Shown here one piece after another: positions 25,151-41,305 of a DNA stretch of 64,000 nt (position 1 is the stretch's first letter; every line of letters starts with the position of its first letter). This DNA comes from Bacillota bacterium (GTDB lineage Bacteria; Bacillota; Desulfotomaculia; Desulfotomaculales; Nap2-2B): assembly GCA_040755215.1 (NCBI GenBank), contig JBFMBG010000002.1, positions 16,974-80,973 of the forward strand, given 5' to 3'. A model generated the notes under the pieces. It saw only the letters and a program-made list of their open reading frames with translations, was not told the origin of the DNA and ran no database searches. The position numbers and the translations under genes are program-made.

Positions 25151-26638
25151 ATGCCACCTTCGTCATTGATAAATTTTCTTGAATCGAAATTTGCCCGGTC
25201 AATCCCGAACATGCAGTTGCCGATTAGGCCTGATGAGCCCTCGAGAGGGCTTCCGGACGGAGCAACGGTGGTTATTGTCGGCGGCGGCCTGGCGGGCAGT
25301 TGCTTTGCCCGGCTCCTGTTAATGCTTTGCCACAAGGAAAATAGACGCATTAACATCTATTTGGTGAATAGCACAGGCTGTAATTATTGTGGGGGCTTGG
25401 TAACTAATATTGCCCAAGAGGCAATGGAGCGTTTATATAAGCTAAACATAACAGACAATCTAGTGCTGGAAAAAATAAACTCCTTTGTTTATGTTAACAG
25501 AGAAGGTCATGTAAAAATTGAGCTGCCAACTCCGATTACCGCTACCTTGCGAACTAGTCGCTTTGGGGTAACTGGTTTTGACGATTCGATTAAGCATAGA
25601 ATACTTGAAGGAATGGAAGATTATACAAAAACATCCACCTTTACGCGCATCGAACCCACTATCGTCAAAAATATTATTCCGCCCGACGGCAAATCCAAAA
25701 AATGGCGGGTGGTTTTAAGCCGCCGCCGGCCGAACGGGTCTCCGGACGAATTATCAGCCGACCTGGTTGTCTTGGCAGCGGGATTTAATTCTTTGGACAA
25801 ACCAATGATCAACCGTTATATGCAAAGTACCGGATTTAAACCTCCGCCTGTACTCCGCGCTTGCGTTACGGAGATAGATACTTCTACTGCCAGATATAAC
25901 CGCGTAGGCCAACATGTATATATGATCGACGGAATCGTCCCGGGTTCTATTCTGGCTTTTATTCCCAAAGGTAAAAATTGGTTAACCTTGACTTCCTTGA
26001 ACAAAGTGCTGAGCTTTGAAGATCTGGAAACTTTATTTAACCATCCAGTTGTGAAGGAAATTATTGACTTGCCCAACCCGGCAGAATGCTTGCGCTGCCA
26101 TGTAATTTGCCCGTCTTTTGTTTTTACCGGTCCATCGCGGCATTTTTACGGTGATGGTTGGGTAGCCGTAGGCGATTTAGCAGGATACGGCCGGGTTTTA
26201 AAAGACGGTTACTTTGCAGCCTTTGTTGGTGCATGGTACGCGGTTCACACAGTTTTTTACCACGGGACCTCCCGCGCTCACTTTGAGCGCCACTATCATG
26301 GCCCCTTGCGCCGGTTTAATCGAGAAAACCTCCTTGGAATTAAGCTTTTCAACTTTAATATGTTTATTGGTCGGCAAAAATGGTTCAATCGTTTGCTTCT
26401 GGCCGCAGCAAAGGAGGAGCGGCAAAAAAACCCTTACGGTTGGGCTATCCACGCTGCTTTTCGGAGCCTCCAGACTGGTCTTTTACCCTATCTGCTTATA
26501 TGCTTACTTTTTGTGGTAGGTGTTTTTCGTTACGTCCTACGTCACCCTTTTCAAGCATGGAGAATTTTTTTTGCAGAGACAGGGAAAACCGCGGCAAAAG
26601 CAAAAAAATCCTTATCGGCTGCACGAAAGATTATTTAA
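25151..26638 (+). CDS. FAD-dependent oxidoreductase with C-terminal membrane helix (function unknown)
   Basis: 495 aa. VVIVGGGLAGSCFARLL dinucleotide-binding motif, GDGWVAVGDLAGY (GD motif), CNYCGG Cys pair, hydrophobic LLPYLLICLLFVVGVF near the C-terminus. The gene is visibly AT-richer than its surroundings. Confidence 0.55.
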   Translation: MPPSSLINFLESKFARSIPNMQLPIRPDEPSRGLPDGATVVIVGGGLAGSCFARLLLMLCHKENRRINIYLVNSTGCNYCGGLVTNIAQEAMERLYKLNITDNLVLEKINSFVYVNREGHVKIELPTPITATLRTSRFGVTGFDDSIKHRILEGMEDYTKTSTFTRIEPTIVKNIIPPDGKSKKWRVVLSRRRPNGSPDELSADLVVLAAGFNSLDKPMINRYMQSTGFKPPPVLRACVTEIDTSTARYNRVGQHVYMIDGIVPGSILAFIPKGKNWLTLTSLNKVLSFEDLETLFNHPVVKEIIDLPNPAECLRCHVICPSFVFTGPSRHFYGDGWVAVGDLAGYGRVLKDGYFAAFVGAWYAVHTVFYHGTSRAHFERHYHGPLRRFNRENLLGIKLFNFNMFIGRQKWFNRLLLAAAKEERQKNPYGWAIHAAFRSLQTGLLPYLLICLLFVVGVFRYVLRHPFQAWRIFFAETGKTAAKAKKSLSAARKII

Positions 26639-26710
26639 AACCTGAATCCGTGATACCATCTCACCAATAACCATTTTCAGGCATAAGATTCAGGTAAAGC
26701 TTTCGGGAGC

Positions 26711-28303
26711 TTACTCCGGAGGAACAATCAGAGCCAGGGCGAAAACAAATAAGAAAACTACAATCAAAAAGAGATTCAGGCCAAGTAATCCGAACTGAAA
26801 AAGCCAGGTGAACCCGGCGAGGACGGTAAGCATGCAAAGAAACGCGCCAGCCAGGGCGCTCAGGGCAACCACCTTTCTCCACGGGGAAAGGTTTCTCGCC
26901 GGTTGCCATTGATCGGCCCTTTCCACCAAAGTCACCGCCACCAGGGTAACAATATTCATGGACATTCCGAAAAATACCGGGTGAATGTGCAGGTAAAAAT
27001 TCGCCGGGTCCCAGCGGCCCAGGGAATACCACGTCAATCCGCCTAGAAAACCGGTAACCATCGCCGCCACCGCCGCCCGGCGGGTGGCCAGCGGCCAGAA
27101 CAGGGTGGCCACCACGGGGGCAAAGGTGGCGCCGTTCCGCAGCGTCCAGGCCAGCACGTTCCACCAGGCTGCCTGCTCGCTCCGGAGAAGGGCAAGGACG
27201 ATGACCATGGCGGTCAGCAACACCAGGGACCACCTGGTGTAGGCAACTTTTTGCGCGTCGGCCAGACCCGGTTTCACCGCTTCCGCAAAATCCCTGCCCA
27301 GGCTGGTGGAACCGGAGAACTGGCAGGGCGCCCCCCAACCCAGGGCACAGGCCCAGACGCCCATAAAAAACAATCCCACCAGGGGAGGGGGGAGAACCCG
27401 ACCCAGGTAAACCGGGACGCCGACCATCCCGCCCCGGTAACCGGGCGCTGCCGCAGCCGCCGCCAGGCCAAATAAAATGCCCAGGGAAATAAAAATTGCA
27501 TCGGCGGCAAAAGCCATCAATAAACCCCTGCGCCCCTCCTCCGGAGTCCGGCAGGACAGGGCCATCTGAAAGGCCGCCTGCGCCGCCAGCACGTTAATCA
27601 AAAAGGTGGCAAACCAGGCAATAATCAATTGCAATCCTACGCCGTCCAGGCTAAACATCTCCGGCCGGGTCCTGGCCAGGTGCGCCAGTCCGGCAGGGCC
27701 GGACCCGACGAAAAAGGCGTAGATTCCTACGCCGAACATCAGGACAAACGCAACGTTGTTGGCCGTCTGGGTGGCAACCACCGACCACATCCCCCCGACC
27801 TCAAGAAAAATCAACAAAAGCAAGGCGCTGATGGTTACCGTTACGGGCAGCGAGAAATCGGTAAAAACATCCAGGGCGACGGCGAAGGAAAGGGTATTGG
27901 CAACCGTCCACATGGGGAAGGTCAAGCCGGTAATTGCTCCGGCCACCCCTAAGGCGAGCCTGCCGAAGCGGTCACCGATCAGGCCCGAGATAGTGATCAT
28001 CAGGCGGCGGCGCAGGTTGCCGATCAGCAAAAGAGCAATAATCAGCACGTGCACCATCTCGGCCACCCCGTACCAGCCAGCGGAGATCCCTTTTGCATAG
28101 GATAGTTCAAGAATAGAAATGTAGGAAGAACCGGAAAAAAGACCGGTGGTACAGACAAAAACCATCCAGGCCCGAAAAGATCTCCCACCCACCCAAAATC
28201 CTTCCCCGTCCCGGGCCCTGCTTTTCACAATGTTGCCGAGGATAATCAGGACGGCTGTATAAAATACGGCCATTCCCAGTATCCATGCTCCGCAGGGATT
28301 CAT
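26711..28303 (-). CDS. sodium:solute symporter (SSS) family transporter
   Basis: 530-aa polytopic ORF. The N-terminal GEGFWVGGRSF motif and overall pattern are typical of the SSS family. Confidence 0.7.
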   Translation of the reverse strand: MNPCGAWILGMAVFYTAVLIILGNIVKSRARDGEGFWVGGRSFRAWMVFVCTTGLFSGSSYISILELSYAKGISAGWYGVAEMVHVLIIALLLIGNLRRRLMITISGLIGDRFGRLALGVAGAITGLTFPMWTVANTLSFAVALDVFTDFSLPVTVTISALLLLIFLEVGGMWSVVATQTANNVAFVLMFGVGIYAFFVGSGPAGLAHLARTRPEMFSLDGVGLQLIIAWFATFLINVLAAQAAFQMALSCRTPEEGRRGLLMAFAADAIFISLGILFGLAAAAAAPGYRGGMVGVPVYLGRVLPPPLVGLFFMGVWACALGWGAPCQFSGSTSLGRDFAEAVKPGLADAQKVAYTRWSLVLLTAMVIVLALLRSEQAAWWNVLAWTLRNGATFAPVVATLFWPLATRRAAVAAMVTGFLGGLTWYSLGRWDPANFYLHIHPVFFGMSMNIVTLVAVTLVERADQWQPARNLSPWRKVVALSALAGAFLCMLTVLAGFTWLFQFGLLGLNLFLIVVFLFVFALALIVPPE

Positions 28304-28389
28304 TTTTTTAACCTCCCTTCGGAGGGATCAACAATGGACTGTAAGGTTACCTGTCTTTCTCGAGCCCGTACCGGAATACCCCCGCTCTC

Positions 28390-29571
28390 CTAAACGAGAA
28401 AAAGAACCACAAAGTAAATAATCATCAAGGCCATTCCAAAGGGCACCCCCAGGCAGGCCCATTCCCGGCTGCCGATTTTCAGCTTGCTGGCGGAAACGAT
28501 ATTGGGAATGTTGCCGGGGATGAGCATCCCCCCGCTGATTAATAGCCCCATCAGGATGGCCTGGATTTGCTGGGAAGTCATTTTCGCGCTGATTTCCGCC
28601 GCCGCCAGGGTGGCGTTGTCTAAAACGGCAGAAATCATGTTTACCCAGTAAAGCAGGCGGCTGTCGAAGTAGATTACATAGGTATCGATGACCGGTTTAA
28701 AACCGGCGCCGAGCAGTTCTAAGGCCATCACAAAGACGAAAATTTTTACCGCCCGGATCACCACCCCCTGGTAAGATTCCTTTTCCACTGTTTCCTCCGC
28801 TTCTTTTACGGCGGCTCTTTCTGCGGTTGCCGCCACTGGACTGGCGAACGCCCCGCCCTGCCAAGCCGGGTCCTGATCCCTCCCTTCGTTTCTCCCGGCA
28901 ACCCTGGTAACGGTAGGGAGACTTTCCACCTGCTCCGGCGCCTTAATCACAACGTCCCCTTTCGCCGGACGCCCACGCGCTACGTAATAAGCCCCAAACA
29001 GGCCGGTGGCCAGCACGCCGGGAATAATAAACCAGCCTACCTCCCCCAGGAGGTACCAGAAGCCGGCGTTCAGCTTAGAAACGGTGATGGTGGAAAGGGG
29101 TTCCCCGATGGGCGTAAGCGCGGCCCCCAAACCAATTGAAAAACAGGCGATTATGTCCAGATTCACTTTGTCCTTGCGGGAAAGCGGCAGAACGCTGATT
29201 ATTTCCACCAGCACCAAAGAGGCGATGATGGCGGTGATGACACTAGAGAACAAACCCAGGGTAACCGTAATGAAAAAGATAAAAACTTTCAGAGGGACAT
29301 ATTTCAGGATGGCCGCAACGGCCCCCTGCACTTTTTCTTTCCAGATTTTAAACAAAAGGCCGGCAATGAGAACGGCGCCGGTAATCATATACATAAAATG
29401 GTTTTCCAAAATTTCGATGAGCAGTTCTTTCCCCAAAACGCCGGAGACGATGGTCGCCGCCAGGCCCATGATGAAAAGAAAAGGCTCCAGGTTGTGCTCA
29501 ACCTGCTTTAAAAGAAAGGGGAGGGTCAAAACCAGGAGCAAGATAATTAACAAACCAATAACCATTTTCAA
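28390..29571 (-). CDS. polytopic membrane protein, possibly DUF1646-type cation transporter
   Basis: 393 aa with many TM helices. The N-terminus LPFLLKQVEHNLEPFLFIMG resembles DUF1646, from memory only. A hydrophilic central loop is present. Confidence 0.4.
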   Translation of the reverse strand: MKMVIGLLIILLLVLTLPFLLKQVEHNLEPFLFIMGLAATIVSGVLGKELLIEILENHFMYMITGAVLIAGLLFKIWKEKVQGAVAAILKYVPLKVFIFFITVTLGLFSSVITAIIASLVLVEIISVLPLSRKDKVNLDIIACFSIGLGAALTPIGEPLSTITVSKLNAGFWYLLGEVGWFIIPGVLATGLFGAYYVARGRPAKGDVVIKAPEQVESLPTVTRVAGRNEGRDQDPAWQGGAFASPVAATAERAAVKEAEETVEKESYQGVVIRAVKIFVFVMALELLGAGFKPVIDTYVIYFDSRLLYWVNMISAVLDNATLAAAEISAKMTSQQIQAILMGLLISGGMLIPGNIPNIVSASKLKIGSREWACLGVPFGMALMIIYFVVLFLV

Positions 29572-29623
29572 GTCCTCCTGTAAATAGATTGAAACTGAGG
29601 GTGGGAAAGTTAAATCACCCTTT

Positions 29624-29653
29624 CAAAAAAATTATCCACGCCGGGTGGATAAT
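29624..29653 (-). terminator. rho-independent terminator after the anion permease gene
   Basis: 9-bp stem ATTATCCAC/GTGGATAAT with a 5-nt loop. On the minus strand it is followed by T7, 42 nt after the stop at 29695. Confidence 0.7.
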
Positions 29654-29694
29654 TTTTGCCTAACCCAATAAATTTTTATCTCTCTCGGAGAGCA

Positions 29695-31209
29695 TTATAA
29701 ATTCTGCCAGAATTGGAGATTAAAGTGCAACACAGTCCCCCAGAACAGCCACGATACAAGCCCGCACGCAAGAGCACAGAAAAAGCCGTAGAGAGGCAAG
29801 CGCCAGGAGGCCTTCCCTTCCAGAGCGATCGGAAGGGCCATCGTTCCTGTAGCTGCCGGAACCATGAAAGAAAAGTTTACTGTATATCCCATCATGAGCA
29901 GCCACGGAATTGGGTTTACCCCGGCAGCTTTTGTCGCCGCTCCCACTATCGGGGCCAGCATTCCGGCGGCACCGGTATCCGAAGCAATATTACCCATGAA
30001 TAGACAAAAGGCGACAAATATGCCCGTCCCCGTGTAAGCCGGCAAATTCCAGTATGTCCCCAGGAACTGTGCCATTAACTTGCCGGCACCCGTCATGGTA
30101 ACGAGGGCTGCAATGCTCATCGCTGTGGGCCAAAGGAGAAAGGCATGAATGGGAAAGACCTTAACGGCATTAATGCTCAGGAGTCTTTCGCCCGGCTCGT
30201 ATTCAAACGGCTTGCCTTTCGGAGCCCCTGCGTCCGGAGCAGGCAGCAAAGCGAGGATACCTGTTACAACCGCGAAAATTAAGGAAGGGCTGATGTTTAC
30301 TCCTTTAGGCAGGTAAGGCCTCCATAACGGCTCTAAAAAGGGCATGGCTACGGCCAACAGGAAAATGATAAAGCCCCACTTCTCCGAACCTGTGATCGGG
30401 CCCATCTTTTTTAGTTCTTCTTCGAAGTATTCGTGAGATCCTTCAAAATGCTTGCGATCGATCGGAAAAACGGCGGCAAATAAAATGGCCACGGGGATCA
30501 TGCTCAGAAAAACGGGAAGCACCAGTGTAGCTGTGTAACTGGCCATGGCAACAGGCCTCCCGAGAGTGTCAACCAGTTGCTGCCAGGTTATGACGGCCTG
30601 GCCGCCGGCCATCGGAGTCAAGAAGCCACCCAGGGAAGCACCAATAGCTACAGCAATAATGATGAGCATCGCACTTGCGCTGTTTTTCAATTTCTGACTG
30701 GAATCATAACCCACGTACTTGAGAATTTCGAGGGCAATCGGGGTAAGGGCAATGGCGATGACAGTATTTGCCGCTATAAAACTGATTATTGTAGAAAACA
30801 TTACCCAGACAACGGCCTGCGCCCTGACGGAAGTACCGACCCACTTCAGGCAGAACAACGCCATCCGGCGGGTCAGGCCCCACCTCGTCCACATGCAGAC
30901 GATCAGGGCCGGACCCAGTAACATCCCGAGACCCGGGTGAATAACTGTCTTGGTTATCTGTCCCCAATCCATGCCGGGAAGGAAAGCGGTTCCCAAAAGC
31001 GGAATGAAGATCGTATACCCTGTCGGTATTATCCCTGTCGCCCAGTACCAGGCACACCAGACAATAATTGCTAGCCCGCCCCGGGCAGTAACGCTTCCGA
31101 TAGGCAGCGCGAATAGAATAATGAAGTACAAAATGGGGCCGACCGCCAGGGTGATCCATTCCAGAACGGTTTTATCAAACCCCAAGATCCTTACCGTCTT
31201 TGTTCCCAA
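29695..31209 (-). CDS. ion-transporter superfamily anion permease (SLC13/DASS-like; sulfate or dicarboxylate)
   Basis: 504-aa polytopic ORF. SLGGFLTPMAGG resembles the DASS/ArsB-NhaD hairpin motif. The sulfur-gene context is noted, but the substrate is unproven. Confidence 0.55.
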   Translation of the reverse strand: MGTKTVRILGFDKTVLEWITLAVGPILYFIILFALPIGSVTARGGLAIIVWCAWYWATGIIPTGYTIFIPLLGTAFLPGMDWGQITKTVIHPGLGMLLGPALIVCMWTRWGLTRRMALFCLKWVGTSVRAQAVVWVMFSTIISFIAANTVIAIALTPIALEILKYVGYDSSQKLKNSASAMLIIIAVAIGASLGGFLTPMAGGQAVITWQQLVDTLGRPVAMASYTATLVLPVFLSMIPVAILFAAVFPIDRKHFEGSHEYFEEELKKMGPITGSEKWGFIIFLLAVAMPFLEPLWRPYLPKGVNISPSLIFAVVTGILALLPAPDAGAPKGKPFEYEPGERLLSINAVKVFPIHAFLLWPTAMSIAALVTMTGAGKLMAQFLGTYWNLPAYTGTGIFVAFCLFMGNIASDTGAAGMLAPIVGAATKAAGVNPIPWLLMMGYTVNFSFMVPAATGTMALPIALEGKASWRLPLYGFFCALACGLVSWLFWGTVLHFNLQFWQNL

Positions 31210-31727
31210 TTCCAGTCACACTCCTTTTCCCGTTTTTAAAGGTGTACAATTATTCACTTTTCTTTTTTAGCATGTACTATCATTCACTTTTTAGCCAGTA
31301 CTTATCCTTCTAAAACTCCTTCCCGCGTCATTTTAAACCATAAGCTTTTTCAAAACCCATTTGCCTGGATATTTCTTTCGGACCATTCCCACCCCGCTTT
31401 GACTTTCGACTTGTTCATTACCTTGTTTTGTTATTCTGCCTATTGCATTCTTAATCTGTACCGGGTATTGGTGGAAGGAGTTTAATTAACCCCGGGCCCC
31501 GACATGCGGATTATTTACCATCCAGGAGAGGCAATTCAATAAACTGACGGGGAAATAGATCCGGTTATGTGCCGGGGCCTCAGGATTAATATTAAAAAAG
31601 CAGCGCATTGAAACATGAGATTGAGGGAAGAGGGGATTTTTATTTGGATTTTGCGCTGCCAATACCAATTCCCAATCCGCCTTTCCTGGCCAGAGCCTGG
31701 CAAAAACGGGCAGGCGAACTTTAATTC

Positions 31728-32573
31728 CTACATGTAACCCAAAGCCCGCAGCCTGGCCATGGCTGCTTCTTTGTCCTGGCGCCGGCCGGCCCGCTCCACC
31801 GTATTTTCCAGGTCCTGCTCCCAGGCCGGGAGGTCGGACATCTTCGTAGTTGTGGTCTTGGCCCCGAGAGAACGGTAACCCTGGGCGTAAAGGGAAACAA
31901 ACGGAAGTTTGAAGTGGTGGTAAATATCCCACAGGGCCCGTTCGCTGATGTGCAGAATCGGCCGGATGCGCACCTGGGCCGGCTGCAGGTACTGCGCCGC
32001 CACTTCTTCAATATACGGATCGTCAGCCCTGACCGGCTGCTCGTCCCAGCGCAATCCCTGGACGATTACCTTCACGTTATTTTCTTCCAGGTAAACATTC
32101 AGGGCTACCGACTTCATTAAGTGGTTCCCGACAAAGGATTCGGCCTCAAACGGGAATCTTTCCAGTTCCCCGAACCCGATCCGCTTGATTTCCTCGCGGT
32201 TCCGCTCGTTGAGATCCTTAACCCAAACGTCGGCACCCAACGTATAGTTGCAGGCTCTCAACACGTCCTCGTTTTTCGCCACTTCGAGGACAACGCCCCA
32301 TTCCTTGCTCATTTTGGCCAGGAACTCTTCAGCTTCTTCAAAGGTATCTCCTTCGTCAATGGTAACAGCCTTAGGCATCTCAAAGCCGTATTCCTTGCAG
32401 GTCTCCCGCCAGATCCAGAGGGTCAGGGTGCTGTCCTTGTGGCCGGACCAGACCAGGCGGATATTCTTGGGGTCAAACTGCCGGTATGCTTCCCGCACGA
32501 TATTCTTGGAGATATGAATGTATGTTTCCAACTCCTGGATTCTTTCTTTGCTTAATGGTTTGCCGTTCGGCAT
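31728..32573 (-). CDS. PAPS reductase/CysD-superfamily ATP pyrophosphatase-like protein
   Basis: 281 aa. PP-loop variant WSGHKDST, later QGYRSLGAKTTT, and C-terminal ERAGRRQDKEAAMARLRALGYM, as in the CysD/PAPS-reductase family. Confidence 0.7.
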   Translation of the reverse strand: MPNGKPLSKERIQELETYIHISKNIVREAYRQFDPKNIRLVWSGHKDSTLTLWIWRETCKEYGFEMPKAVTIDEGDTFEEAEEFLAKMSKEWGVVLEVAKNEDVLRACNYTLGADVWVKDLNERNREEIKRIGFGELERFPFEAESFVGNHLMKSVALNVYLEENNVKVIVQGLRWDEQPVRADDPYIEEVAAQYLQPAQVRIRPILHISERALWDIYHHFKLPFVSLYAQGYRSLGAKTTTTKMSDLPAWEQDLENTVERAGRRQDKEAAMARLRALGYM

Positions 32574-32609
32574 TCTTATTGCACCTCCGTATGACTTATG
32601 CTCTTAAGG

Positions 32610-33824
32610 TTATTGCTGCTTTTCGTATCTTCTCACCCGAGGGATCACTTTTTTCATCATGTATTCGGTAACCGTTGTTTTTTCGATAAGGTTGTTTCTT
32701 TCTTCCGGATCGTCGGCGAGGTCGTACAACTCCCAGGAATCGTCCGTCTCGCGGTAGATGATTTTCAGGTCGCCTTCGCGGTAAAAGTGGACTTCTTTTT
32801 CGTCCCCTTTTTCGTGGCTCCCCTGCTTATCGATGGACTCGCCGTATACACCTTTTGGTTCGTACGCCTCCACGGGGAGCAGCGATTGCCCCTGCCAGGC
32901 CGGGGACGGTTCAACATGGAAAAGGTAAGTAATCGTCGGGGGTACGTCCAGCGTACTGACCACGGTATCGGAAACGATCCCCTCGCGCCGGGAGGAATCG
33001 TAAATCATTAAAGGCACGTTGACCAGTTCCTGGTACATCTTGCCGTCGTGGGAAAGCCCGCCGTGTTCACCGAACTCTTCACCGTGGTCGGCGGTGATAA
33101 CGACGGCGGTCTCGTCGTGAAAACCGGTTTCCCGCAGAATACCGAAGAATTCTTCGGCAGCCTCGTCAACCTCCCGGACGTGGGCCAGGTAGAGCTTGCG
33201 CAGCAACTCCACCGTTTCCCGATTGGAAACGTCTCGCTTCAAAAGCACGTTTTTAAAAAGGGCGAACATTTCATCTTCGTTCAGCGTGATTCCCGGATCA
33301 ACGGCCTCCACGTACCTGCGCTCCGGAACGTACGGTTCGTGTACGTCCATGTAGTGCACCCACAGGAAAAACGGCTTTTCGCCACCCCTTTCCCGGTACG
33401 TCCGCAGCCAGTTCGCCGCCTTCTGGTTGATGGCGCGGGCCTTAATATAGGGCGTCTTTTCATCCACCTTAGCCTCCATGGAATCGTAGAAAACGTCCCA
33501 TCCCCGGTTCCAGCCGAAAAAGGCGCAGAGGTAGGCGTTGGAGTGAAACGCCGCCGTGGTTATCCCGGCCTTTCTCAACACCTCCGAAACGAGCACCCGC
33601 TGCGGCGGGCACTTCCCCCGCTGGCGGCCGAAATCAAGGTAGTAAGAGGAGGTCAGGATGCCCGGGAACCCTGCCTGCGTGTAGGGGCCGCCGGAATAAG
33701 CGTTGTTAAAGCGGATGCACCGATCCTGCAGGGAATCGAGAAAAGGAGTCAGGTTCCCTCCACCGTAGCAACCCAACACATCTTTTCTTAACGTATCGAT
33801 CGTTAACAGCACAACGTTTTTCAT
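32610..33824 (-). CDS. sulfatase-like alkaline-phosphatase-superfamily enzyme (Thr at nucleophile position)
   Basis: 404 aa. LLTIDTLRKD metal-site motif and ADHGEEFGEHG. The position of the sulfatase CxPxR motif reads PYTQAGFPGILTS. Confidence 0.7.
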   Translation of the reverse strand: MKNVVLLTIDTLRKDVLGCYGGGNLTPFLDSLQDRCIRFNNAYSGGPYTQAGFPGILTSSYYLDFGRQRGKCPPQRVLVSEVLRKAGITTAAFHSNAYLCAFFGWNRGWDVFYDSMEAKVDEKTPYIKARAINQKAANWLRTYRERGGEKPFFLWVHYMDVHEPYVPERRYVEAVDPGITLNEDEMFALFKNVLLKRDVSNRETVELLRKLYLAHVREVDEAAEEFFGILRETGFHDETAVVITADHGEEFGEHGGLSHDGKMYQELVNVPLMIYDSSRREGIVSDTVVSTLDVPPTITYLFHVEPSPAWQGQSLLPVEAYEPKGVYGESIDKQGSHEKGDEKEVHFYREGDLKIIYRETDDSWELYDLADDPEERNNLIEKTTVTEYMMKKVIPRVRRYEKQQ

Positions 33825-33909
33825 GGGCGTACCTCTTCTCTTTTGATCAGTAACAACAAGGGGGAAGGGAGAGGAGGGAGAAAGTTTCCCCCTCCTTTTT
33901 TCCGGTTAA

Positions 33910-35256
33910 TTATTCCACGATATAGCCCAAAGCGCGCAGGCGGGCTTCGATGGCTTTCTTCTCTTCCTCCGGCATCTCCCGGCGGACAATTCCCTTGGGT
34001 TCGGCGCGGTAATAATCGTTGCATTGTTCGCGCAGCTGCTGCAACCACTTAGGCGCGTGGAACTTGAGCCGGTCGATCAGATTATTCTGCTCCAGAGGAT
34101 CTTTCTTCAAATCAAAGAACTCTTCATACATCGAAGAGGCGTACCGGATGTATTTCCAGTTTTCCTCCCGCAGGGCCTGTCTTGCCCCCATTCCATAAAC
34201 GGACCAGACCGTTTCGGCGTAGGCACGCTTGCCGTGCCCTCTTAATTTTTCCATGCACGGAACCAGGCTCTCGCCGTCCAGGGGCACTTCCACCTTATCC
34301 AAAATCCCCAGGAGATCCATGATGGTGGGCATAATATCAATAGACCTTACCTGGCCTTCGATTCTTTTCCCGATGCATTGCGGCGGCAGGTTGGGGGCTT
34401 TAATGATGAGCGGAATTTTCAAATCTACATCGTAAAGGCTGGAGTGCGTGTTCGGCAAATCGCCCAAATCGACGGGGTCGTAGATATAATCACCGAAGGG
34501 CCAGCATTCGTTCCGGAGGGTAGTCCCGTGATCGCCGGTGATGACGATCAGAGCGTCGTCGTAATAGCCGACTTCTTTGAGGGTGGCGATTACGCTGCCG
34601 ATGACTTCTTCGTCGGCCAGCTTGATTTTCGCGTCGTAATAGGCGTTTTCAGGCATTTCGCCTTCCTTGATGCGGCCGGAACGGACCAGGTATTCTTCCG
34701 AACCGGTATGGGTTTCGTAGAACTGGTTGTAAAGGTAGAAGGACTTGCCTTCGGCAGCGCATTGCTTGATAAATCTGATGTTGTCGTCAACGTATCTTTT
34801 GCCTACAGGCTTGGCGTGAAATCTTCCGTCCACGTTAACCCCCAGGGCCTGCCAGTGCTCTACGCCGTCGCCCCAGGTGTCGGGAGCGTTCGGGTCGGTG
34901 GGCTCGATGAATATATCGAAACCGTTGTTCATGCCAATCCCGGAACCGGCCACGCTCTGGCTCATGCACCCCTGGGTCGCCCAGCCCAGGTATTTTTTGA
35001 TATACTCCTGAAGCAGGGGCGGGCAGACGACGTGGAAGGGATCCCGGACGCCGGTATGCGGCCCGATCATGCCTGTCCAAAGGACCGGCGTCGCCGCTCC
35101 CGTATAAGAACTGCCGGAAATAACCGTGGCAAACACTACCCCTTCCCTGGCAAGCGCCTCAATGTTTTTTTGCCGGCGGTAGTATCCGTTCACGGAAAGG
35201 TGATCCGCCCGCACTTCGTCGAACTGAAAAACGTAGACGCATTTTGGCTTTCGCAC
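33910..35256 (-). CDS. sulfatase-like alkaline-phosphatase-superfamily enzyme (Thr at nucleophile position)
   Basis: 448 aa (GTG start). FDEVRADHL and GDHGTTL motifs. The nucleophile region reads SYTGAATPVLWTG rather than C/S-x-P-x-R. Confidence 0.7.
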   Translation of the reverse strand: MRKPKCVYVFQFDEVRADHLSVNGYYRRQKNIEALAREGVVFATVISGSSYTGAATPVLWTGMIGPHTGVRDPFHVVCPPLLQEYIKKYLGWATQGCMSQSVAGSGIGMNNGFDIFIEPTDPNAPDTWGDGVEHWQALGVNVDGRFHAKPVGKRYVDDNIRFIKQCAAEGKSFYLYNQFYETHTGSEEYLVRSGRIKEGEMPENAYYDAKIKLADEEVIGSVIATLKEVGYYDDALIVITGDHGTTLRNECWPFGDYIYDPVDLGDLPNTHSSLYDVDLKIPLIIKAPNLPPQCIGKRIEGQVRSIDIMPTIMDLLGILDKVEVPLDGESLVPCMEKLRGHGKRAYAETVWSVYGMGARQALREENWKYIRYASSMYEEFFDLKKDPLEQNNLIDRLKFHAPKWLQQLREQCNDYYRAEPKGIVRREMPEEEKKAIEARLRALGYIVE

Positions 35257-35397
35257 TTTTCGTTACCCCTTTCTTGTTATGATTTAACTCGCAAGATTTT
35301 CAAATTCAAGAACCAATGCCAAGAGCAACCGCCAACCTAATCACCTTCCTTTATTCGTTTTTTATTTCACTTTCGTTGCCTGCAATCTATTGTCAAG

Positions 35398-35413
35398 TGC
35401 AAAAAACATACCA
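35398..35413 (-). promoter_or_regulatory. sigma54 -24/-12 promoter (P2)
   Basis: The minus strand reads TGGTATGTTTTTTGCA (GG-N10-GC), 142 nt upstream of the sulfatase-like gene start at 35256. Confidence 0.65.
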
Positions 35414-35456
35414 GACATGAAAAACAATATTTTTTTAGCAATTCTATCGATGACTA

Positions 35457-35470
35457 ATACACTCTTGTAT
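35457..35470. promoter_or_regulatory. palindromic upstream activator site candidate
   Basis: ATACactcttGTAT, 43 nt upstream of the TGG of P2. Confidence 0.5.
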
Positions 35471-35544
35471 CAAAATGATTGTAATTCTCGGAGCAATATC
35501 CTTAAACACCTGGTTAGTCACAGCCAATACAACAATGCATTAGT

Positions 35545-35562
35545 CGATACTTTTTTGTATAA
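35545..35562. promoter_or_regulatory. palindromic upstream activator site candidate (distal)
   Basis: CGATACttttttGTATAA, same ATAC-N6-GTAT core, about 133 nt upstream of P2. Confidence 0.45.
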
Positions 35563-35747
35563 ATTGTTCGTTATTCTCTCTTTCTCCGGTGCCTCCCGTC
35601 CTTCCGAAATAACTTCCCATTCACGTTCTGCCTGGTGCTCATTGACGTATTACGTGGCCAAAGCTTCTCATTAACCCGCATTCCAGACGGGAAATTAGGT
35701 GACCTACTCTAGATAGTCAGCGTTTACGATACCGGGGCGCGATCCAT

Positions 35748-35802
35748 TAAAAAAGAAAAGCCCTGGTCACCGACGGAATTTGGCATTTAATGCGACCAGG
35801 GC
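35748..35802 (-). terminator. rho-independent terminator after the sat operon
   Basis: Perfect 9-bp stem GCCCTGGTC/GACCAGGGC with an internally structured 25-nt loop. On the minus strand it is followed by TTTTCTTTTTT, 70 nt after the stop at 35872. Confidence 0.65.
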
Positions 35803-35871
35803 ACCAGGGAGTAGGTAAGTTATGGCCTGAAACTTGTGGAAAGAAGCTTCCTTATAGGTTGCAAGATTATT

Positions 35872-36162
35872 TTAATAATCCTTCAGGAAATCTTCCATTA
35901 CATCCAGGCTGGCTTTTTCCACGATTTTATTAAAGATTTTGTCTTTCACGTCCCTGGGCAGCAATTCGATGCTCTTGGTGGTCGCCGAATCGTATTTCGC
36001 GGTGGGGAACACCTTCAAAACCCTGTCCTTTTGCTCTTCCGTGCAGGGAACTTTAAGCACTTTCAAGCCGGCCAGCTGCTCCTCGGCCATGTCCGCCAGA
36101 CCTACCTTCTGCAGCTTGGCGAGCCTTTCTTCGTTAATCCAGATATTGATTACGATACTCAT
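35872..36162 (-). CDS. hypothetical 96-aa protein downstream of sat
   Basis: The ORF starts 11 nt after the sat stop and ends before the terminator. I recognise no family. Confidence 0.4.
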   Translation of the reverse strand: MSIVINIWINEERLAKLQKVGLADMAEEQLAGLKVLKVPCTEEQKDRVLKVFPTAKYDSATTKSIELLPRDVKDKIFNKIVEKASLDVMEDFLKDY

Positions 36163-36173
36163 TTCGCCACCTC

Positions 36174-37436
36174 CTAAAACTTCATTTCCGGCAAGGTAAA
36201 CACAGGATTTCTATCCTGCAGGTATTTATCCGTCACGAAGGCCGAGCCGAAACCGTATTTCTCGGCACATTCCATAATCAGGTCGAACACTTCGGGTCTG
36301 AAGATCAGGCGAGGTGGCTTCACACCATCCTGGATGATGCTCCTGATCAGCGTGCCGCTGAAGTTCTGGCTCTGCGCTTTATGGCCGCACAACCCCGAAT
36401 AGGTGACTTCGGCACAAACGGGGCAGTACCACCAGGCCAGCACCCGCACCGGTTTAATCCGCAGGTCGCTTTCCGGAATCTGGTCGAAGATCCGGTGCGC
36501 ATCGTAAGGATCGTAGTACGTGCCCACGCCGGCGTGGTCCCGGCCGAACATGTGGTGCGTAAGGCCCAGATTCGTCCTCAAGATGGCGTGGAAAACGGCT
36601 TCCTTCGGCCCGGCGTAGCGCATATCCCAGAGGGTGATGGAGGTGAGGTGGACGTCCTCCCGGAAATAGCCCGCTTTGCGCAGCACGTCGTGGCACAGGA
36701 CGATGGCTTCGTCGATGTAGTCGCCCTTTCTCTTTTCGCCGATAATGGCGTTGACGAGCACGCCCGTAACCGTTTTTTCCACCGGCAGCTCGCCGTGGGC
36801 CTGCAGCCAGGAACCCTTCATCAGCCACTCGTGCCCGGTATGCGGGACGTTTCTGGTCTGGTGGGCGACAATCCGCTGCCAGCCTTTTTCGGCGAATTTT
36901 TGCCGGAGCTGTTTAGGGGTGAAGAAGAATTCGTCAAACGGAGGGTTGATTTTGGGCGGATTAACCAGGGTGACCTTCCCGCCGAGGAACTTATCCTTGT
37001 ACTTGTACGTCCTGGCCACTCCCGGGTGCTTTTCTTCCGTGGTGCCGTAAACTTTCTGGGCCATTTCCTGTTTGTCGTAGGTAAAGATTTCCTCGACTTC
37101 CAGAATGGCCATCGGCTTGTCCTGGTAGGTTAAGAGGACCTTGTCCCCTTCTTTAATTCCCTTTTCGTTGATTTCCTGATCCGACAGATCGAAAACGATC
37201 GGGATGGGCCAGAGGACGCCGTTGGCAAGGCGCATCTCCTTACAGACCCGGCCCACGTCTGCTCTGGTCATAAAACCTTCCAGGGGGGTAAAAAACCCGT
37301 ACGCAATATCGATAATTTCTCTGGCGATCTGGCCGCGGATGGGCACCGGCGTAAGTCCTTTGATTGCCCGGGCCGCCTCTTCCGGCGCCATTACTCTTTC
37401 GACAAGCTCTTTGCCGCCATGGCCGATATTACTCAT
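36174..37436 (-). CDS. sat: sulfate adenylyltransferase (ATP sulfurylase, homo-oligomeric type)
   Basis: 420 aa with QTRNVPHTGHEWL (QxRNxxHxxH) and FGRDHAGVG motifs. GGAAGGAG SD upstream. Confidence 0.9.
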   Translation of the reverse strand: MSNIGHGGKELVERVMAPEEAARAIKGLTPVPIRGQIAREIIDIAYGFFTPLEGFMTRADVGRVCKEMRLANGVLWPIPIVFDLSDQEINEKGIKEGDKVLLTYQDKPMAILEVEEIFTYDKQEMAQKVYGTTEEKHPGVARTYKYKDKFLGGKVTLVNPPKINPPFDEFFFTPKQLRQKFAEKGWQRIVAHQTRNVPHTGHEWLMKGSWLQAHGELPVEKTVTGVLVNAIIGEKRKGDYIDEAIVLCHDVLRKAGYFREDVHLTSITLWDMRYAGPKEAVFHAILRTNLGLTHHMFGRDHAGVGTYYDPYDAHRIFDQIPESDLRIKPVRVLAWWYCPVCAEVTYSGLCGHKAQSQNFSGTLIRSIIQDGVKPPRLIFRPEVFDLIMECAEKYGFGSAFVTDKYLQDRNPVFTLPEMKF

Positions 37437-37477
37437 CTCACTTCTCCTTCCCTTTCAAAATGTGCTTTTGGGGCGAA

Positions 37478-37696
37478 TCAACCGTTCGCTTCGTGCCTGA
37501 TTTTGCTTTGTTTTTTACATCCATAATCTTTTGGAGACAGCCTGTCCTGGACAGATTCATTGTCCCCTTGGGAAGAAGTTCTTTCTTTTTTCGAATTGTT
37601 TCTAAGAAGGACTTCTGCCCTATACATTTCTGCCCTAAAGAAAGGCTCTTCCAGCGCTTTCAAAAACCACGCGTGAATTTTTTTAGCGGAAACCAT
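37478..37696 (-). CDS. hypothetical 72-aa basic protein (start inferred)
   Basis: Internal ATG of ORF 37478..37747, preceded by AAGGAGA at 7-nt spacing. It fills the gap between the exported-protein gene and sat. No family recognised. Confidence 0.3.
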   Translation of the reverse strand: MVSAKKIHAWFLKALEEPFFRAEMYRAEVLLRNNSKKERTSSQGDNESVQDRLSPKDYGCKKQSKIRHEANG

Positions 37697-37716
37697 ACCA
37701 ACATCTCCTTGATAAC

Positions 37717-38532
37717 TTATTCTCTTTTTATACCTGGCAACCGGCAAATTAGCTTCTCAAAAAAGCGAAACAGGAGATCGATGAGCAAGCCGGCCAGCAA
37801 GGCAATAAAAACAGCGTAAGTACCGTATAAAGGACCATTTGTTTTCGCCATTTTGCGTATCCAGCCGGCAACCCCCGTCGGCTGGATAATCAGCGGGCTC
37901 TCGCTTTGGCCGATCACGCGGCCGTCCCTGATGGCGTAAGCGGTTATGGTCGTCTCCCCGTACGCCGCTTCCGCGGGTATTCTAATCAACGCCGAAAAGC
38001 TCTGCCCTCCTTTTTCTTCTTTTGTGAACAGGGATTTTTCCTGAACAACGTACAGGCCTTTTTTCTTATACAGGCCAACCAAAGCATCAACGTATTCTTT
38101 ACCCTCCCGGGCCGGCAAATCTTTGGTTTTTCCTCCGGTTGCAACGATAACCGTGGCCCGGTCGTGAACGGCGGCAAAATTGCCGTCCAGGCCCGTGTCT
38201 TTCCGAAGCGAAGGCGGCAACCGGTCAATTTCCGCCGAAGTGTAGATTTGATACATTTTAGGCACATTTACCACTTCCGCCTGCGCTACATTCATCCACA
38301 AAAAGCCGACTTTCCCTTTTTTATTTAACCTCTCTTTCCTCCCCGGCGATACCATCTTCAGATAAATGTCGCACTGCGCAGGAGCAGTGCCCGAAATATT
38401 AACGACAGCTCCTTTAAAACCCAGCCCCACCGCAATTACTCCGGGGTCGGGAGCCACGCGAATCTCCTGGGCAAAAGCAGCCGGCACGCCCGCCCCGAAG
38501 ATAAGACAAAATACGAGCAGCCCAACCTTCAA
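37717..38532 (-). CDS. exported protein with C-terminal membrane anchor, translationally coupled to tauE
   Basis: The ORF track runs to 38931 through tauE in another frame. I trimmed to the TTG at 38532, which overlaps the tauE stop and has GGGGGGAGG upstream. This yields signal peptide LKVGLLVFCLIFGAGVPAAFA and a C-terminal TM helix YAVFIALLAGLLIDLLF. Confidence 0.5.
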   Translation of the reverse strand: MKVGLLVFCLIFGAGVPAAFAQEIRVAPDPGVIAVGLGFKGAVVNISGTAPAQCDIYLKMVSPGRKERLNKKGKVGFLWMNVAQAEVVNVPKMYQIYTSAEIDRLPPSLRKDTGLDGNFAAVHDRATVIVATGGKTKDLPAREGKEYVDALVGLYKKKGLYVVQEKSLFTKEEKGGQSFSALIRIPAEAAYGETTITAYAIRDGRVIGQSESPLIIQPTGVAGWIRKMAKTNGPLYGTYAVFIALLAGLLIDLLFRFFEKLICRLPGIKRE

Positions 38533-39437
38533 TGGCCTCCCCCCAAAACGATCAGTGATGCGGGGGCTGCGAGTAAATTGTGAAGCATCTTGACCATTAC
38601 GCCGAGAACGATGACCGAAAAAAAGATGCGCAGCTGTTCTCCTTTCAAAAGGCGACCGAGGCGCGCCCCCACCTGGGCTCCGACCGCCGAGCCGAGGAGC
38701 AAAAGGAGAGCCAGCATAACGTCGACGGTTTCGTTGATAATCGCCTGGGCAAGAGTTACGTTTACAGCGGTAAAAATCACGGTGAAAAGACTGGTGCCTA
38801 CCGCCTTGTGCGTGGGAATTCCCAAAAGGTAGATCATTACCGGCAACATGATAAAACCGCCGCCAACGCCCATTAAAGCCGCCATGACGCCGATAAAAAA
38901 CCCGAGCGCAAATAAAACGATCACCGAACATTCAATTTTTGAAACAGGGAAGAAAAGCCTTCCCGGCAAAGATTTGGCCAGGTAGAACGGCCTGCCGGCC
39001 AAAGAGTCGGCGCTTCCTTTCCCCCGCAAGGCACGCAAGCTCTCCGCAAACATAAACGCTCCTACAAACAAAAGCATAACCACATATACCAGCGTTACGA
39101 TCAAATCAAAATTGCCCAACTGGCGCAATATCTTTACTCCTGTTGCGCCCAGCGTTCCTCCCGTCAGTCCGCCGAGGAGCATGATATAGCCGAGCTTGAA
39201 ATCAACGTTGCCTGCACGGCCGTGGGCCAGCGTACCGGACACGGAAGCAGCAACAATCTGGTTGGTATCGCTGGCCGCCGCCACCGCCGGCGGAATACCG
39301 ATCATCATTAAAAGGGGGGTGAGCAAAAACCCCCCGCCGACTCCAAATAAGCCAGACAGCATTCCTACCACGCCCCCCAGGCTAAAAATTAAATAGGTTT
39401 TGATCTGCACGCCCGCCACAGGCAAAAATATTTCCAT
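38529..39437 (-). CDS. TauE/SafE-family sulfite/organosulfonate exporter
   Basis: 302 aa with duplicated 4-TM halves, each carrying the GVGGGF(L/I) motif typical of TauE/DUF81. Confidence 0.8.
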   Translation of the reverse strand: MEIFLPVAGVQIKTYLIFSLGGVVGMLSGLFGVGGGFLLTPLLMMIGIPPAVAAASDTNQIVAASVSGTLAHGRAGNVDFKLGYIMLLGGLTGGTLGATGVKILRQLGNFDLIVTLVYVVMLLFVGAFMFAESLRALRGKGSADSLAGRPFYLAKSLPGRLFFPVSKIECSVIVLFALGFFIGVMAALMGVGGGFIMLPVMIYLLGIPTHKAVGTSLFTVIFTAVNVTLAQAIINETVDVMLALLLLLGSAVGAQVGARLGRLLKGEQLRIFFSVIVLGVMVKMLHNLLAAPASLIVLGGGH

Positions 39438-39455
39438 TTTTTTCGACTCCCCACT

Positions 39456-39899
39456 TCATGAAGCACGCTGAATCAGTTTTCCAGCAGTTTTCTTCCCGGG
39501 TTTCGGCAAGTCAATTGCCTGGTGTTGAAGGGACAGCCTAAAAACGTAATGTTCTACCAGCAGATTATAACTTTCCATGGCCAGACCCAGGACCAGCAAA
39601 AGCAAGAGCATCACTCCGTAGGGGAAAAGCTGGACATCCCGGTTATTTTTGTCGTAGAGCTTCCCGGAAACATCCGCCCAGGTGTAAATTTCCATGGTAT
39701 CCGGGTCTTGCTCCACGATGATATGGCGAGAAGGGTTAAAGTAATTTTTAAACAGACTTTCCCGCAAGCAATTAACCCCTGCCCAGAAAACCAGGAAAGC
39801 AAAAACGGCTACAGCCACAGCGACAAGTTTCGATAACGTCTTTAATTTTTTCTTTTCGTCCTGATTCAGGCTGAGGATGATTTGGTCCATGACACCCAC
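39456..39899 (-). CDS. hypothetical two-TM membrane protein
   Basis: 147 aa with two hydrophobic helices (LVAVAVAVFAFLVFWAGV, VMLLLLLVLGLAM); sits directly upstream of tauE. Confidence 0.45.
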   Translation of the reverse strand: MGVMDQIILSLNQDEKKKLKTLSKLVAVAVAVFAFLVFWAGVNCLRESLFKNYFNPSRHIIVEQDPDTMEIYTWADVSGKLYDKNNRDVQLFPYGVMLLLLLVLGLAMESYNLLVEHYVFRLSLQHQAIDLPKPGKKTAGKLIQRAS

Positions 39900-39978
39900 T
39901 CCTTTTACTTCTGTTTATTATTATTTTCATAAGTTATAATTTTCGCAAAAATCAATTTAATATAGATTAAAAGGTTTT

Positions 39979-40605
39979 TTATTTGACTCCCAATCTATTT
40001 AAAGTGTTTTTGGTGATCAAGATAAAGTTGGCGAGTTTCAAAGAGACAGAAGCGATCTCACGCCGCTCTACGACCGCAAAAGGCAAAAACAATTTAAAGC
40101 GGTATTTTCCGGTAGCTTCTACCGAAGGCAATTCACGTTCGATGACTTCGCCCAGCTCCCTTTCCATCTCTTTTTTTAAATTTAACAGGGGCAAGAAAAC
40201 CTGCCTTTTCTGGCCGTCCATGACGAGATCAATAAATAAAAGGTTTTCACCCTGAGGAACCCTTTTTCGGGGTCGGGTCCTCCCAATGCGGTAGTATATG
40301 TTTTGATTCTCAAAAACCCGGATGCATTTCCACGATTCCTTAAAGCCCATCCGCCGGTTGGGAAAAGTGTAGAGGATTTTCACCCCTAAACCGCCAAGCA
40401 AGCGTTCAGCATGGCTCAATACGCTATTCAAAAAACCATCGAAATCCCCCTGGCGGGGCGACTCTTCTTCGCCTTTCGCCCTTTCTTCCGCCAGCCAGCT
40501 CTTAAAACGACGAAACAGCTTCCAGTAGACCGACCCTTCTTTGTCTTTCTCCGAAAGCATCCCGCTGTGTTTTCCGTAACTTCCGGCAAGCTCCTGATTA
40601 GTCAC
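39979..40605 (-). CDS. hypothetical 208-aa protein, first gene behind sigma54 promoter P3
   Basis: GTG start after a GGGGGAAGGA purine tract. No family recognised. Confidence 0.45.
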   Translation of the reverse strand: MTNQELAGSYGKHSGMLSEKDKEGSVYWKLFRRFKSWLAEERAKGEEESPRQGDFDGFLNSVLSHAERLLGGLGVKILYTFPNRRMGFKESWKCIRVFENQNIYYRIGRTRPRKRVPQGENLLFIDLVMDGQKRQVFLPLLNLKKEMERELGEVIERELPSVEATGKYRFKLFLPFAVVERREIASVSLKLANFILITKNTLNRLGVK

Positions 40606-40664
40606 TTTCCTTCCCCCTGGAAAAAAGCAAAGCAGAAAGGCTTATGTTCGTTAAATTAAAACTA

Positions 40665-40680: not shown

Positions 40681-40722
40681 CAATGAAAGACCCGGAATTT
40701 CCCGGTTTTTGGGCAAGATTTA

Positions 40723-41287: not shown

Positions 41288-41305
41288 TAACTTACCTTAT
41301 GGAAT

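Follow-up and report, generated by a model that had tools for sequence, protein, structure and literature searches.

A conserved gene module coupling threonine-type sulfatase-fold proteins to a CysD-like PP-loop protein and ATP sulfurylase

Three adjacent genes in a 64,000-nucleotide stretch (the window) of a Bacillota genome assigned to the Desulfotomaculales (contig JBFMBG010000002.1, positions 16,974 to 80,973) code for two sulfatase-fold proteins, here termed sulfA and sulfB, and a protein of the 3'-phosphoadenosine-5'-phosphosulfate (PAPS) reductase fold, here termed PAPSr. We tentatively favor the reading, which we regard as possible, that this trio is one version of a module, widely distributed but so far not described, for PAPS-independent sulfuryl transfer linked to adenosine-5'-phosphosulfate (APS), operating with neither an APS kinase nor a CysH-type reductase. 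The module is functionally linked with the ATP sulfurylase Sat, hence with APS, and also with the arylsulfate sulfotransferase (ASST) family of sulfuryl-transfer enzymes. Searches of the literature and of curated databases returned no paper, curated family or solved structure for such a module, and a paper on a Mn-arylsulfatase describes a normal formylglycine enzyme. Each of the components belongs to a known superfamily, and a categorically new system is a real but unproven chance.

The three open reading frames (ORFs), which are separated by gaps of 85 and 36 bp, coincide exactly with the span given to an operon of these genes in the initial annotation, made from the DNA sequence alone:

33910-35256, minus strand: sulfA, 448 aa, sulfatase domain (PF00884, E=2.8e-26) and SGSH_C
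32610-33824, minus strand: sulfB, 404 aa, sulfatase domain (PF00884, E=2.6e-42) and SGSH_C
31728-32573, minus strand: PAPSr, 281 aa, PAPS_reduct domain (PF01507, E=1.1e-20)

No NCBIfam model reached its cutoff for any of the three, and the best NCBIfam matches of sulfA and sulfB, to arylsulfatase and choline sulfatase, cover only their C-terminal halves.

Threonine at the formylglycine position of sulfA and sulfB

HMMER alignments, with high posterior confidence, place T49 of sulfB (GPYTQAGFP) opposite the Ser of the S-G-P-S-R motif in 5g2v and the corresponding Thr of sulfA (SSYTGAATP) opposite Cys84 of the C-S-P-S-R motif in 6pt4. The signature Pro and Arg are replaced by A and F in sulfB (T-Q-A-G-F) and by A and T in sulfA (T-G-A-A-T). 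The proposal of the initial annotation that both proteins carry Thr at the nucleophile position and have lost the Pro and Arg is thus borne out; an active-site Cys or Ser accompanied by Pro and Arg, which would have contradicted it, is not what the alignments give. T49 is invariant in 20 aligned sulfB orthologs (63-86% identity), and every sulfB and sulfA relative that we recovered (~150 loci) keeps the Thr; nine sulfA-like sequences retain both the Thr and the C-terminal tail described below, and in sulfB relatives at 28-41% identity the motif is typically W-T-x-P-S. Orthologs of sulfB occur at 51-96% identity across many phyla, the best 120 matches all being at least 63% identical, and sulfA has ~60 close homologs at 60-100% identity. 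This sequence conservation indicates that the Thr at the formylglycine position is a conserved feature and not a chance substitution, and that Thr-type soluble sulfatase-fold proteins make up a large clade.

A maturase of the formylglycine-generating enzyme or radical-SAM type is not encoded among the scanned ORFs of the window, as initially noted, and no recurrent maturase emerged across 111 module loci, where an N-terminal CxxxCxxC motif is present in only three ORFs, none of which recurs with the module. We accordingly rejected an ordinary formylglycine sulfatase as an assignment for these proteins, with Thr in place of the Cys or Ser, the signature Pro and Arg gone and no maturase found; as judged by their sequences, sulfA and sulfB are not formylglycine sulfatases, as had been proposed.

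Nevertheless, the nearest sequence and structural neighbors of these proteins are the type I sulfatases and phosphonate monoester hydrolases (PMHs), which share their PF00884 fold (BetC, 6G5Z and 6FNY; SpAS1, 4UPI; PMH, 2VQR). Foldseek searches with an AlphaFold2 (AF2) model of sulfB recovered choline sulfatase, other S1 sulfatases and PMH at the top, with query-normalized template modeling scores of ~0.65-0.70. With these enzymes sulfB appears to have in common the N-terminal Asp, the putative DHG metal ligands and likely equivalents of the H-x-P His and the Lys, and in the 20 aligned orthologs D10, D246 and H247, which are candidate metal-ligand positions, as well as H94, H162 and K262, are invariant. 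Equivalents of Arg73 and Lys123 are missing from sulfB, and the active-site loops of its model are of low confidence. As sulfB retains the candidate metal ligands along with counterparts of H162 and K262, and has true sulfatases as its fold neighbors, a sulfate-ester-type pocket is plausible. What distinguishes the window proteins from type I sulfatases is the Thr nucleophile, the loss of the signature Pro and Arg and of the Lys123 equivalent, the lack of a detectable maturase and the coupling or fusion of sulfA/sulfB-type proteins to a PAPS-reductase-fold protein.

A metal-activated Thr at the equivalent position is found in LtaS, EptA and MCR-1, which also belong to PF00884; in sulfA and sulfB the equivalence is one of alignment position only. 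In those enzymes the covalent intermediate is resolved by an acceptor and not by water, and by analogy the same chemistry might be expected of sulfA and sulfB. The likeness to LtaS and EptA raised in the initial annotation holds at this level, that of the Thr position and its chemistry, but does not extend to sequence and fold, which are nearer to the type I sulfatases and PMH, or to a membrane anchor. LtaS, EptA and MCR-1 draw on lipid donors and combine an N-terminal multispan membrane domain with a catalytic domain outside the cytoplasm. By contrast, sulfA and sulfB open directly with the first β-strand (MKNVVLLTIDT and MRKPKCVYVFQFDE, respectively) and have no signal peptide, transmembrane segment or hydrophobic N-terminal segment. 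They are predicted to be cytoplasmic, as is BetC. Membership in the LtaS/EptA group was rejected for want of a membrane domain and for the different structural neighbors; this group does not contain the closest structural relatives, and the only matches to such enzymes, LtaP and VP1736, were weak.

A CysD-like PP-loop protein and its C-terminal tail

The PAPSr family is large, with ~2,200 homologs recovered. In alignments of 23 and 40 members, the PP-loop, W[ST]G[GH]KDS, is intact (WSGHKDST in the window and SGGKDS in most orthologs), the C-terminal tail, ERAGRRQDKE..M.R[LM]R.LGYM, is invariant to the last residue, and the final 50 residues are free of any conserved Cys. PAPSr shares with CysD (1ZUN) the PAPS-reductase fold, an SGGKDS-type PP-loop, a GLR.DE Arg loop and an ER.GR..D....M.....GY tail; it differs in having GAKTT in place of GC.P.T and in its partners, which are an alkaline phosphatase (AP) superfamily enzyme and a separate Sat, with no CysN seen among the annotated neighbors. 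An NCBIfam CysD match covers only the N-terminal 100 residues, and scores against the CysD models PRK05253, PRK12563 and TIGR02039 (63, 36 and 27 bits) lie below the respective cutoffs (195, 413 and 397). With CysH it has in common the fold and a flexible C-terminal tail after the ER.GR motif. PAPSr differs from CysH in lacking the catalytic Cys (ECGLH) and the Fe-S Cys motif and in keeping the PP-loop intact, and a reading of PAPSr as a CysH-type reductase was rejected for lack of a conserved C-terminal Cys.

The absence of these features bears on the most conventional interpretation of the locus, namely, ordinary sulfur scavenging, in which sulfate esters are hydrolyzed and the sulfate is assimilated by Sat and a CysH-like reductase. 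It is what the database names imply ("sulfatase-like hydrolase/transferase" for sulfA, "sulfatase" for sulfB, "phosphoadenosine phosphosulfate reductase family protein" for PAPSr and sulfate adenylyltransferase for Sat), and it would account for the adjoining importers. We consider it quite improbable, however, as the formylglycine signature is missing and no maturase was found, PAPSr has no catalytic C-terminal Cys and no sulfite reductase was noted among the annotated neighbors of the module loci. Moreover, the lineages look mostly anaerobic, to go by the titles of metagenome-assembled genomes (MAGs) and sample names, and reduced sulfur is not usually growth limiting for such organisms.

A family profile of PAPSr retrieved the PAPS domains of FAD synthases best, followed by CysD 1ZUN and then by APS/PAPS reductases, and Foldseek searches with its AF2 model (predicted local distance difference test [pLDDT] score of 90; 44-57 in the tail) recovered FMN adenylyltransferase, APS/PAPS reductases and CysD 1ZUN. 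The PP-loop and GYxSLG motifs are common to PAPSr and the eukaryotic-type FMN adenylyltransferases, which are the PAPS domain of FAD synthase (3G6K, 8ROM), but the identity is only 16-19% and the genomic context of PAPSr is sulfate related, not flavin related. In sequence and modeled structure, then, PAPSr resembles the adenylyltransferases of this fold and is related to CysD and FMN adenylyltransferase. The matches to FMN adenylyltransferases, the best that PAPSr has in the PDB in both sequence and fold, could be taken to favor a nucleotide-activated phospho-group transfer unrelated to sulfate, in which PAPSr would adenylylate a phosphate monoester and the AP-type enzyme would move a phospho-alcohol or AMP in the manner of LtaS, EptA or NPP enzymes; NPP-like fusion partners of PAPSr do exist (see below). 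It would then go unexplained why Sat, TauE and ASST-like proteins are so closely associated with the pair, and we rate this as the least probable of the alternatives considered here.

The sulfA protein ends in RLRALGYIVE (window positions 33910-33960), and an L-x-x-LGY[IVL][DE] ending, characteristic of its relatives, is shared by sulfA with at least 20 of the 28 sulfatase-like ORFs tested from the wider Thr clade (loci L022-L080; L numbers denote collected loci and P numbers collected homologous proteins). sulfB itself has no LGY tail, but its partner PAPSr and the sulfB-PAPSr fusions end in ...LGYM. CysD ends in ...GYF, and its ER.GR..D....ME....GY tail aligns with that of PAPSr. The PAPSr tail is flexible in the AF2 model. 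It corresponds to the part of CysH that bears the catalytic Cys, being ~10 residues longer than in Escherichia coli CysH. The invariant Tyr on this mobile arm might serve in docking. More speculative, an idea and not a finding, is a role as sulfuryl carrier; a Tyr so modified would be a protein aryl sulfate, the type of donor on which ASST enzymes draw.

Gene neighborhoods, fusions and the island in the window

We surveyed the neighborhoods from the side of sulfB in 26 loci from genomes and long contigs and from the side of PAPSr in 80 metagenome loci, a well-flanked subset of 23 of which was used for counts of neighbors within 6 kb. In the former set, PAPSr follows sulfB in 17 of 24 loci, the exceptions being mostly truncated contigs; 13 loci encode Sat and 9 encode an ASST-like protein (PF05935/PF14269). 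TauE, sulfA-like proteins, NPP-like proteins (PF01663), methyltransferases of the MttB family and importers with binding proteins (TRAP, TTT and ABC types) also recur. In the metagenome loci, sulfB is the gene directly upstream of PAPSr in 36 of the 52 with at least 1.5 kb of upstream sequence. Sat lies within 6 kb of PAPSr in 20 of the 23 well-flanked loci (87%), so that the link to the nearby sat gene pointed out in the initial annotation is real; sulfB is present in 15, an ASST-like gene in 14 and one or the other in 21, and an importer is found in 12. With sulfA in only 7 of the 23, the co-occurrence of the whole trio that had been envisaged reduces to a conserved core of sulfB and PAPSr (with Sat and TauE), to which sulfA is an optional accessory. 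The ASST-like β-propeller, a partner not foreseen in the initial annotation, is common in other module loci. No such gene was found in the window, where a weak tblastn match in the ORF at 25151-26638 is unsupported by BLASTP or Pfam.

The order sulfA-sulfB-PAPSr recurs in L083, L084 and L169, and the order sulfA-Sat-sulfB-PAPSr-DUF6955-TauE is seen in L094 and L168. The pairing of sat with the small DUF6955 protein is likewise found in L004, L006, L082, L094, L096 and L168, DUF6955 traveling with this type of Sat. TauE stands beside Sat or PAPSr in L082, L085, L086, L156 and L168, a Na_sulph_symp gene closes the equivalent cluster in L168, and a gene of the sodium:solute symporter (SSF) type lies upstream of sulfB in L087. 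In one type of operon lacking sulfB, with the order GntR-TctCBA-distant ASST-like propeller-PAPSr-Sat-TauE, a known sulfuryl-transfer family takes the place of sulfB. The ASST-like proteins appear to be cytoplasmic and are only distantly related to the characterized periplasmic ASSTs (3ELQ, 9KF4); their conserved candidate catalytic His aligns with what we take to be His436 of E. coli AssT, in presumed mature-chain numbering. The hosts include Bacillota, Dehalococcoidia, Planctomycetota, Spirochaetota, Desulfatiglandales, Binatia, Cloacimonadota, Synergistota, Acetomicrobium and Bathyarchaeia.

In several phyla, genes for MttB-family methyltransferases of the non-pyrrolysine kind lie among those of the module (L010, L012, L085, L107, L134 and L150), accompanied in L085 by a B12-binding corrinoid protein. 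Their best solved relative is the glycine betaine methyltransferase MtgB (219 bits), a hint that the substrates may be sulfated quaternary amines, for example, choline-O-sulfate. In a Dehalococcoidia MAG (L017:4953-8130), an ASST-like-sulfB-PAPSr array runs into genes for an AprA-like flavoprotein (PF00890 and PF02910) and a QmoA/HdrA-like protein, an arrangement that would fit direct delivery of APS to a dissimilatory APS reductase.

In addition to being neighbors, the two core genes are fused in nature. P0077 and P0088 are genuine in-frame sulfB-PAPSr fusions, and an exhaustive search with PAPSr, which yielded only 42 clusters (50% identity) at E <= 1e-30, revealed many proteins of 640-850 aa in which a Thr-motif sulfatase-like domain or an NPP-like domain is followed by a PAPS_reduct domain ending in LGY[MF]. 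Fusions of AP-superfamily domains to a C-terminal PAPS_reduct domain include P0394, P0395, P0417, P0448, P0458, P0489, P0490 and P0496; some such fusions have a DUF4214 insert and a GC.PCT motif. The linkage of sulfatase-like and CysD-like genes noted at the outset thus extends well beyond the window. The adjacency conserved across phyla and the repeated natural fusions indicate that the AP-superfamily enzyme and the CysD-like enzyme are a functional unit, with sulfB and PAPSr acting together.

The NPP-like fusions and the intact PP-loop lead us to keep two other explanations as serious rivals. In the first, the system would be one of GTP-independent sulfate activation, with PAPSr as a CysD-type ATP sulfurylase and sulfB, sulfA or an NPP-like protein as a (pyro)phosphatase that replaces CysN, a GTPase, and draws the otherwise unfavorable reaction forward by destroying pyrophosphate (PPi). 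The CysD-like N terminus, PP-loop and tail of PAPSr are in keeping with this, as are the fusion of both sulfatase-like and NPP-like AP domains to PAPSr, a Thr/Ser nucleophile typical of phosphoryl transfer, the adjoining anion transporters and the lack of Sat in some modules (L083 and L169). Similarly, no CysN accompanies PAPSr in the loci with annotated neighbors, although no search aimed directly at CysN was made across all loci; the only CysNC seen is a fragment in L085, beside a separate canonical CysD (a 293-aa PAPS_reduct gene) ~11 kb from the module. On the other hand, the Sat encoded in the great majority of well-flanked loci would be redundant, the ASST-like proteins, MttB and the binding-protein importers would be left without a role, no downstream consumer of APS is encoded, and the fold neighbors of sulfB are single-metal sulfatases, not bimetallic phosphatases. 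We give this rival a low probability.

The second rival is a noncanonical route of PAPS supply or recycling, in which the Thr enzyme, as a phosphotransferase or phosphatase, would act on the 3' position of APS, PAPS or 3'-phosphoadenosine-5'-phosphate (PAP), for instance, by PPi-dependent 3' phosphorylation of APS held by PAPSr, and so feed sulfotransferases. It would explain why APS kinase is essentially absent, with a single match, on the opposite strand, in 169 loci (~110 of them module loci) to a CysC query sequence, and it agrees with the binding of (P)APS by the PAPS-reductase fold and the suitability of Thr chemistry for phosphoryl transfer. A Sulfotransfer_3 protein is encoded in L168 (13277-14431), a close relative of the window cluster that also encodes the Na_sulph_symp transporter. 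This is, however, the only canonical sulfotransferase in ~170 loci; furthermore, the common partner family, ASST, is known to be PAPS independent and nothing points to recognition of a 3' phosphate. We judge this route to be unlikely.

In the window, the trio is flanked by further sulfate- and transport-related genes:

41382-43169, minus strand: PAS/sigma-54 enhancer-binding activator, a candidate regulator at the island edge (PF00158, E=9e-70, with PAS and helix-turn-helix domains)
38529-39437, minus strand: TauE/TSUP anion permease, upstream of the trio (PF01925, E=2e-48)
36174-37436, minus strand: sat, homo-oligomeric-type ATP sulfurylase, upstream of the trio (PF01747 and PF14306)
35872-36162, minus strand: DUF6955 small protein, upstream of the trio (PF22271, E=9e-34)
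29695-31209, minus strand: DASS/CitMHS-type anion symporter, downstream of PAPSr (PF03600, PF00939)
28390-29571, minus strand: DUF1646 membrane protein, a putative transporter, downstream (PF07854, E=3e-130)
26711-28303, minus strand: SSF-family transporter, downstream (PF00474)
40665-40680, minus strand: sigma-54-type -24/-12 motif TGGCATGCTTTTTGCA, preceding a 208-aa ORF that leads to TauE and sat
35398-35413, minus strand: sigma-54-type promoter-like motif TGGTATGTTTTTTGCA, ~140 nt upstream of the sulfA start, with two mismatches and not significant alone; better sites, with one mismatch, lie elsewhere in the island
25108-25123, plus strand: sigma-54-type -24/-12 motif TGGCATTATTTTTGCT, preceding a 495-aa ORF

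The Sat of the window scores above the NCBIfam cutoffs (NF003166, 514 bits versus 387; TIGR00339, 381 versus 323), and its 90%-identity cluster contains sequences from Desulfotomaculales MAGs. Two Sat proteins of this cluster have close NCBI accessions, MEW6273658.1 (on a 105,680-bp contig) and MEW6274346.1 (on a 49,808-bp contig); to go by the accession numbers alone, they could come from one assembly, that is, a MAG with two near-identical sat genes. A 444-aa protein encoded after PAPSr in L169 and L083, considered as a counterpart of the 495-aa ORF of the window, proved to be unrelated to it.

The sulfate-related cluster sits in an island of ~19 kb (24100-43200) with a G+C content of 0.44-0.55, against 0.56-0.63 in the flanks, bounded by ribF (43200-44126) on one side and rpsO (23769-24038) and pnp (21462-23672) on the other. 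The genes nusA-infB-nrnA-truB-ribF-rpsO-pnp are usually contiguous in Firmicutes, and the island interrupts this string. Its position, its lower G+C content and the fact that sulfB and PAPSr keep >50% identity between phyla suggest that it was acquired horizontally. Sigma-54-type motifs lie upstream of three of its transcription units and the PAS/sigma-54 activator gene adjoins, but the statistics of the motif are weak, with 5 one-mismatch sites against 2.1 expected and 5 of 100 shuffles also reaching 5. Directly after the DUF6955 stop codon, an inverted repeat, CCTGGTC...GACCAGG, followed by a T-run (35749-35800, minus strand) was recognized by eye, a terminator scan being silent at this repeat, which has a long loop; it points to sat-DUF6955 being transcribed separately from sulfA-sulfB-PAPSr. 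Rfam searches over 24000-43500 gave two chance-level matches only and no riboswitch or other RNA element. Elsewhere in the window, and unrelated to the trio, an MmeI/Eco57I-type N6-adenine methylase (3789-7109, 1106 aa) and a second DNA methylase (10028-11272) indicate a restriction-modification locus.

Predicted chemistry and its implications

The APS-linked sulfuryl transfer that we tentatively favor can be conceived as follows. Sat would interconvert sulfate plus ATP and APS plus PPi, PAPSr would bind adenylyl-sulfate or AMP, and the metal-activated Thr of sulfB or sulfA would carry the sulfuryl group as a covalent ester, a carrier role that the ASST-like His would take in other versions of the module. 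With Thr instead of formylglycine, the elimination step to which sulfatases owe their hydrolytic action would be lost, LtaS and EptA being analogous for phospho-groups. Unlike the formylglycine adduct, the Thr ester could not collapse to free sulfate, so that the sulfuryl group would be transferred rather than hydrolyzed. The net reaction would be APS + R-OH <-> AMP + R-O-SO3-, and it might run either as a PAPS-independent sulfation or in the sense in which imported sulfate esters give up their sulfuryl groups to form APS, which would then yield ATP via Sat or enter APS reductase. To judge by the importers, the GntR/LysR regulators, the interleaved MttB demethylases and the sigma-54-type control, such esters would be imported and catabolized. 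The thermodynamics favor sulfation: formation of PAPS from an aryl sulfate and PAP is uphill by ~5 kcal/mol (Keq of ~4.5 × 10^3 for estrogen sulfotransferase). The Sat reaction lies ~10^8 towards ATP, and on these figures the overall conversion of aryl sulfate, AMP and PPi to ATP and sulfate would be feasible.

Several points weigh against such a transfer. Its two possible directions are oppositely supported, the importers and regulators speaking for catabolism and the thermodynamics for sulfation. The model of sulfB has a pLDDT score of 69.8, with poor active-site loops. Thr nucleophiles in this superfamily are, to our knowledge, established for phosphoryl and not for sulfuryl transfer, and the NPP-like domains that replace the sulfatase-like domain in some PAPSr fusions belong to enzymes that attack phosphorus. 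The intact PP-loop would imply ATP/PPi chemistry, in which case PAPSr would seem to be an ATP sulfurylase that duplicates Sat. CysD shares the C-terminal tail, for which we know of no covalent role, and the window itself is without an ASST-like gene.

A more specific proposal, which we regard as doubtful, is that imported sulfate esters serve the module as a source of group-transfer potential. The sulfuryl group would be accepted by either the His of the ASST-like protein or the Thr of the sulfatase-like protein and handed to AMP on PAPSr to give APS, perhaps by way of the invariant Tyr of the C-terminal ...LGY tail as a protein-bound aryl sulfate; Sat would then turn APS and PPi into ATP and sulfate, and TauE would export the sulfate. 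Sulfate reducers might instead channel the APS directly into APS reductase with no ATP spent. If true, this would amount to a novel kind of substrate-level energy conservation, with the first known case of a sulfatase fold serving as a sulfotransferase.

Annotation pipelines label these genes "sulfatase" and "PAPS reductase family protein," so that metagenome surveys count them as ester hydrolysis and assimilatory sulfate reduction, and both labels fail the tests of their defining features here. If the sulfuryl group does move through APS, the module would provide either a PAPS-independent sulfation or a means of conserving the energy of organosulfates or of feeding them directly into sulfate respiration. 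A sulfation system with no need for PAPS would be a gain for biocatalysis, and either direction, if true, would change the genome-based reading of organic sulfate cycling in anoxic habitats.

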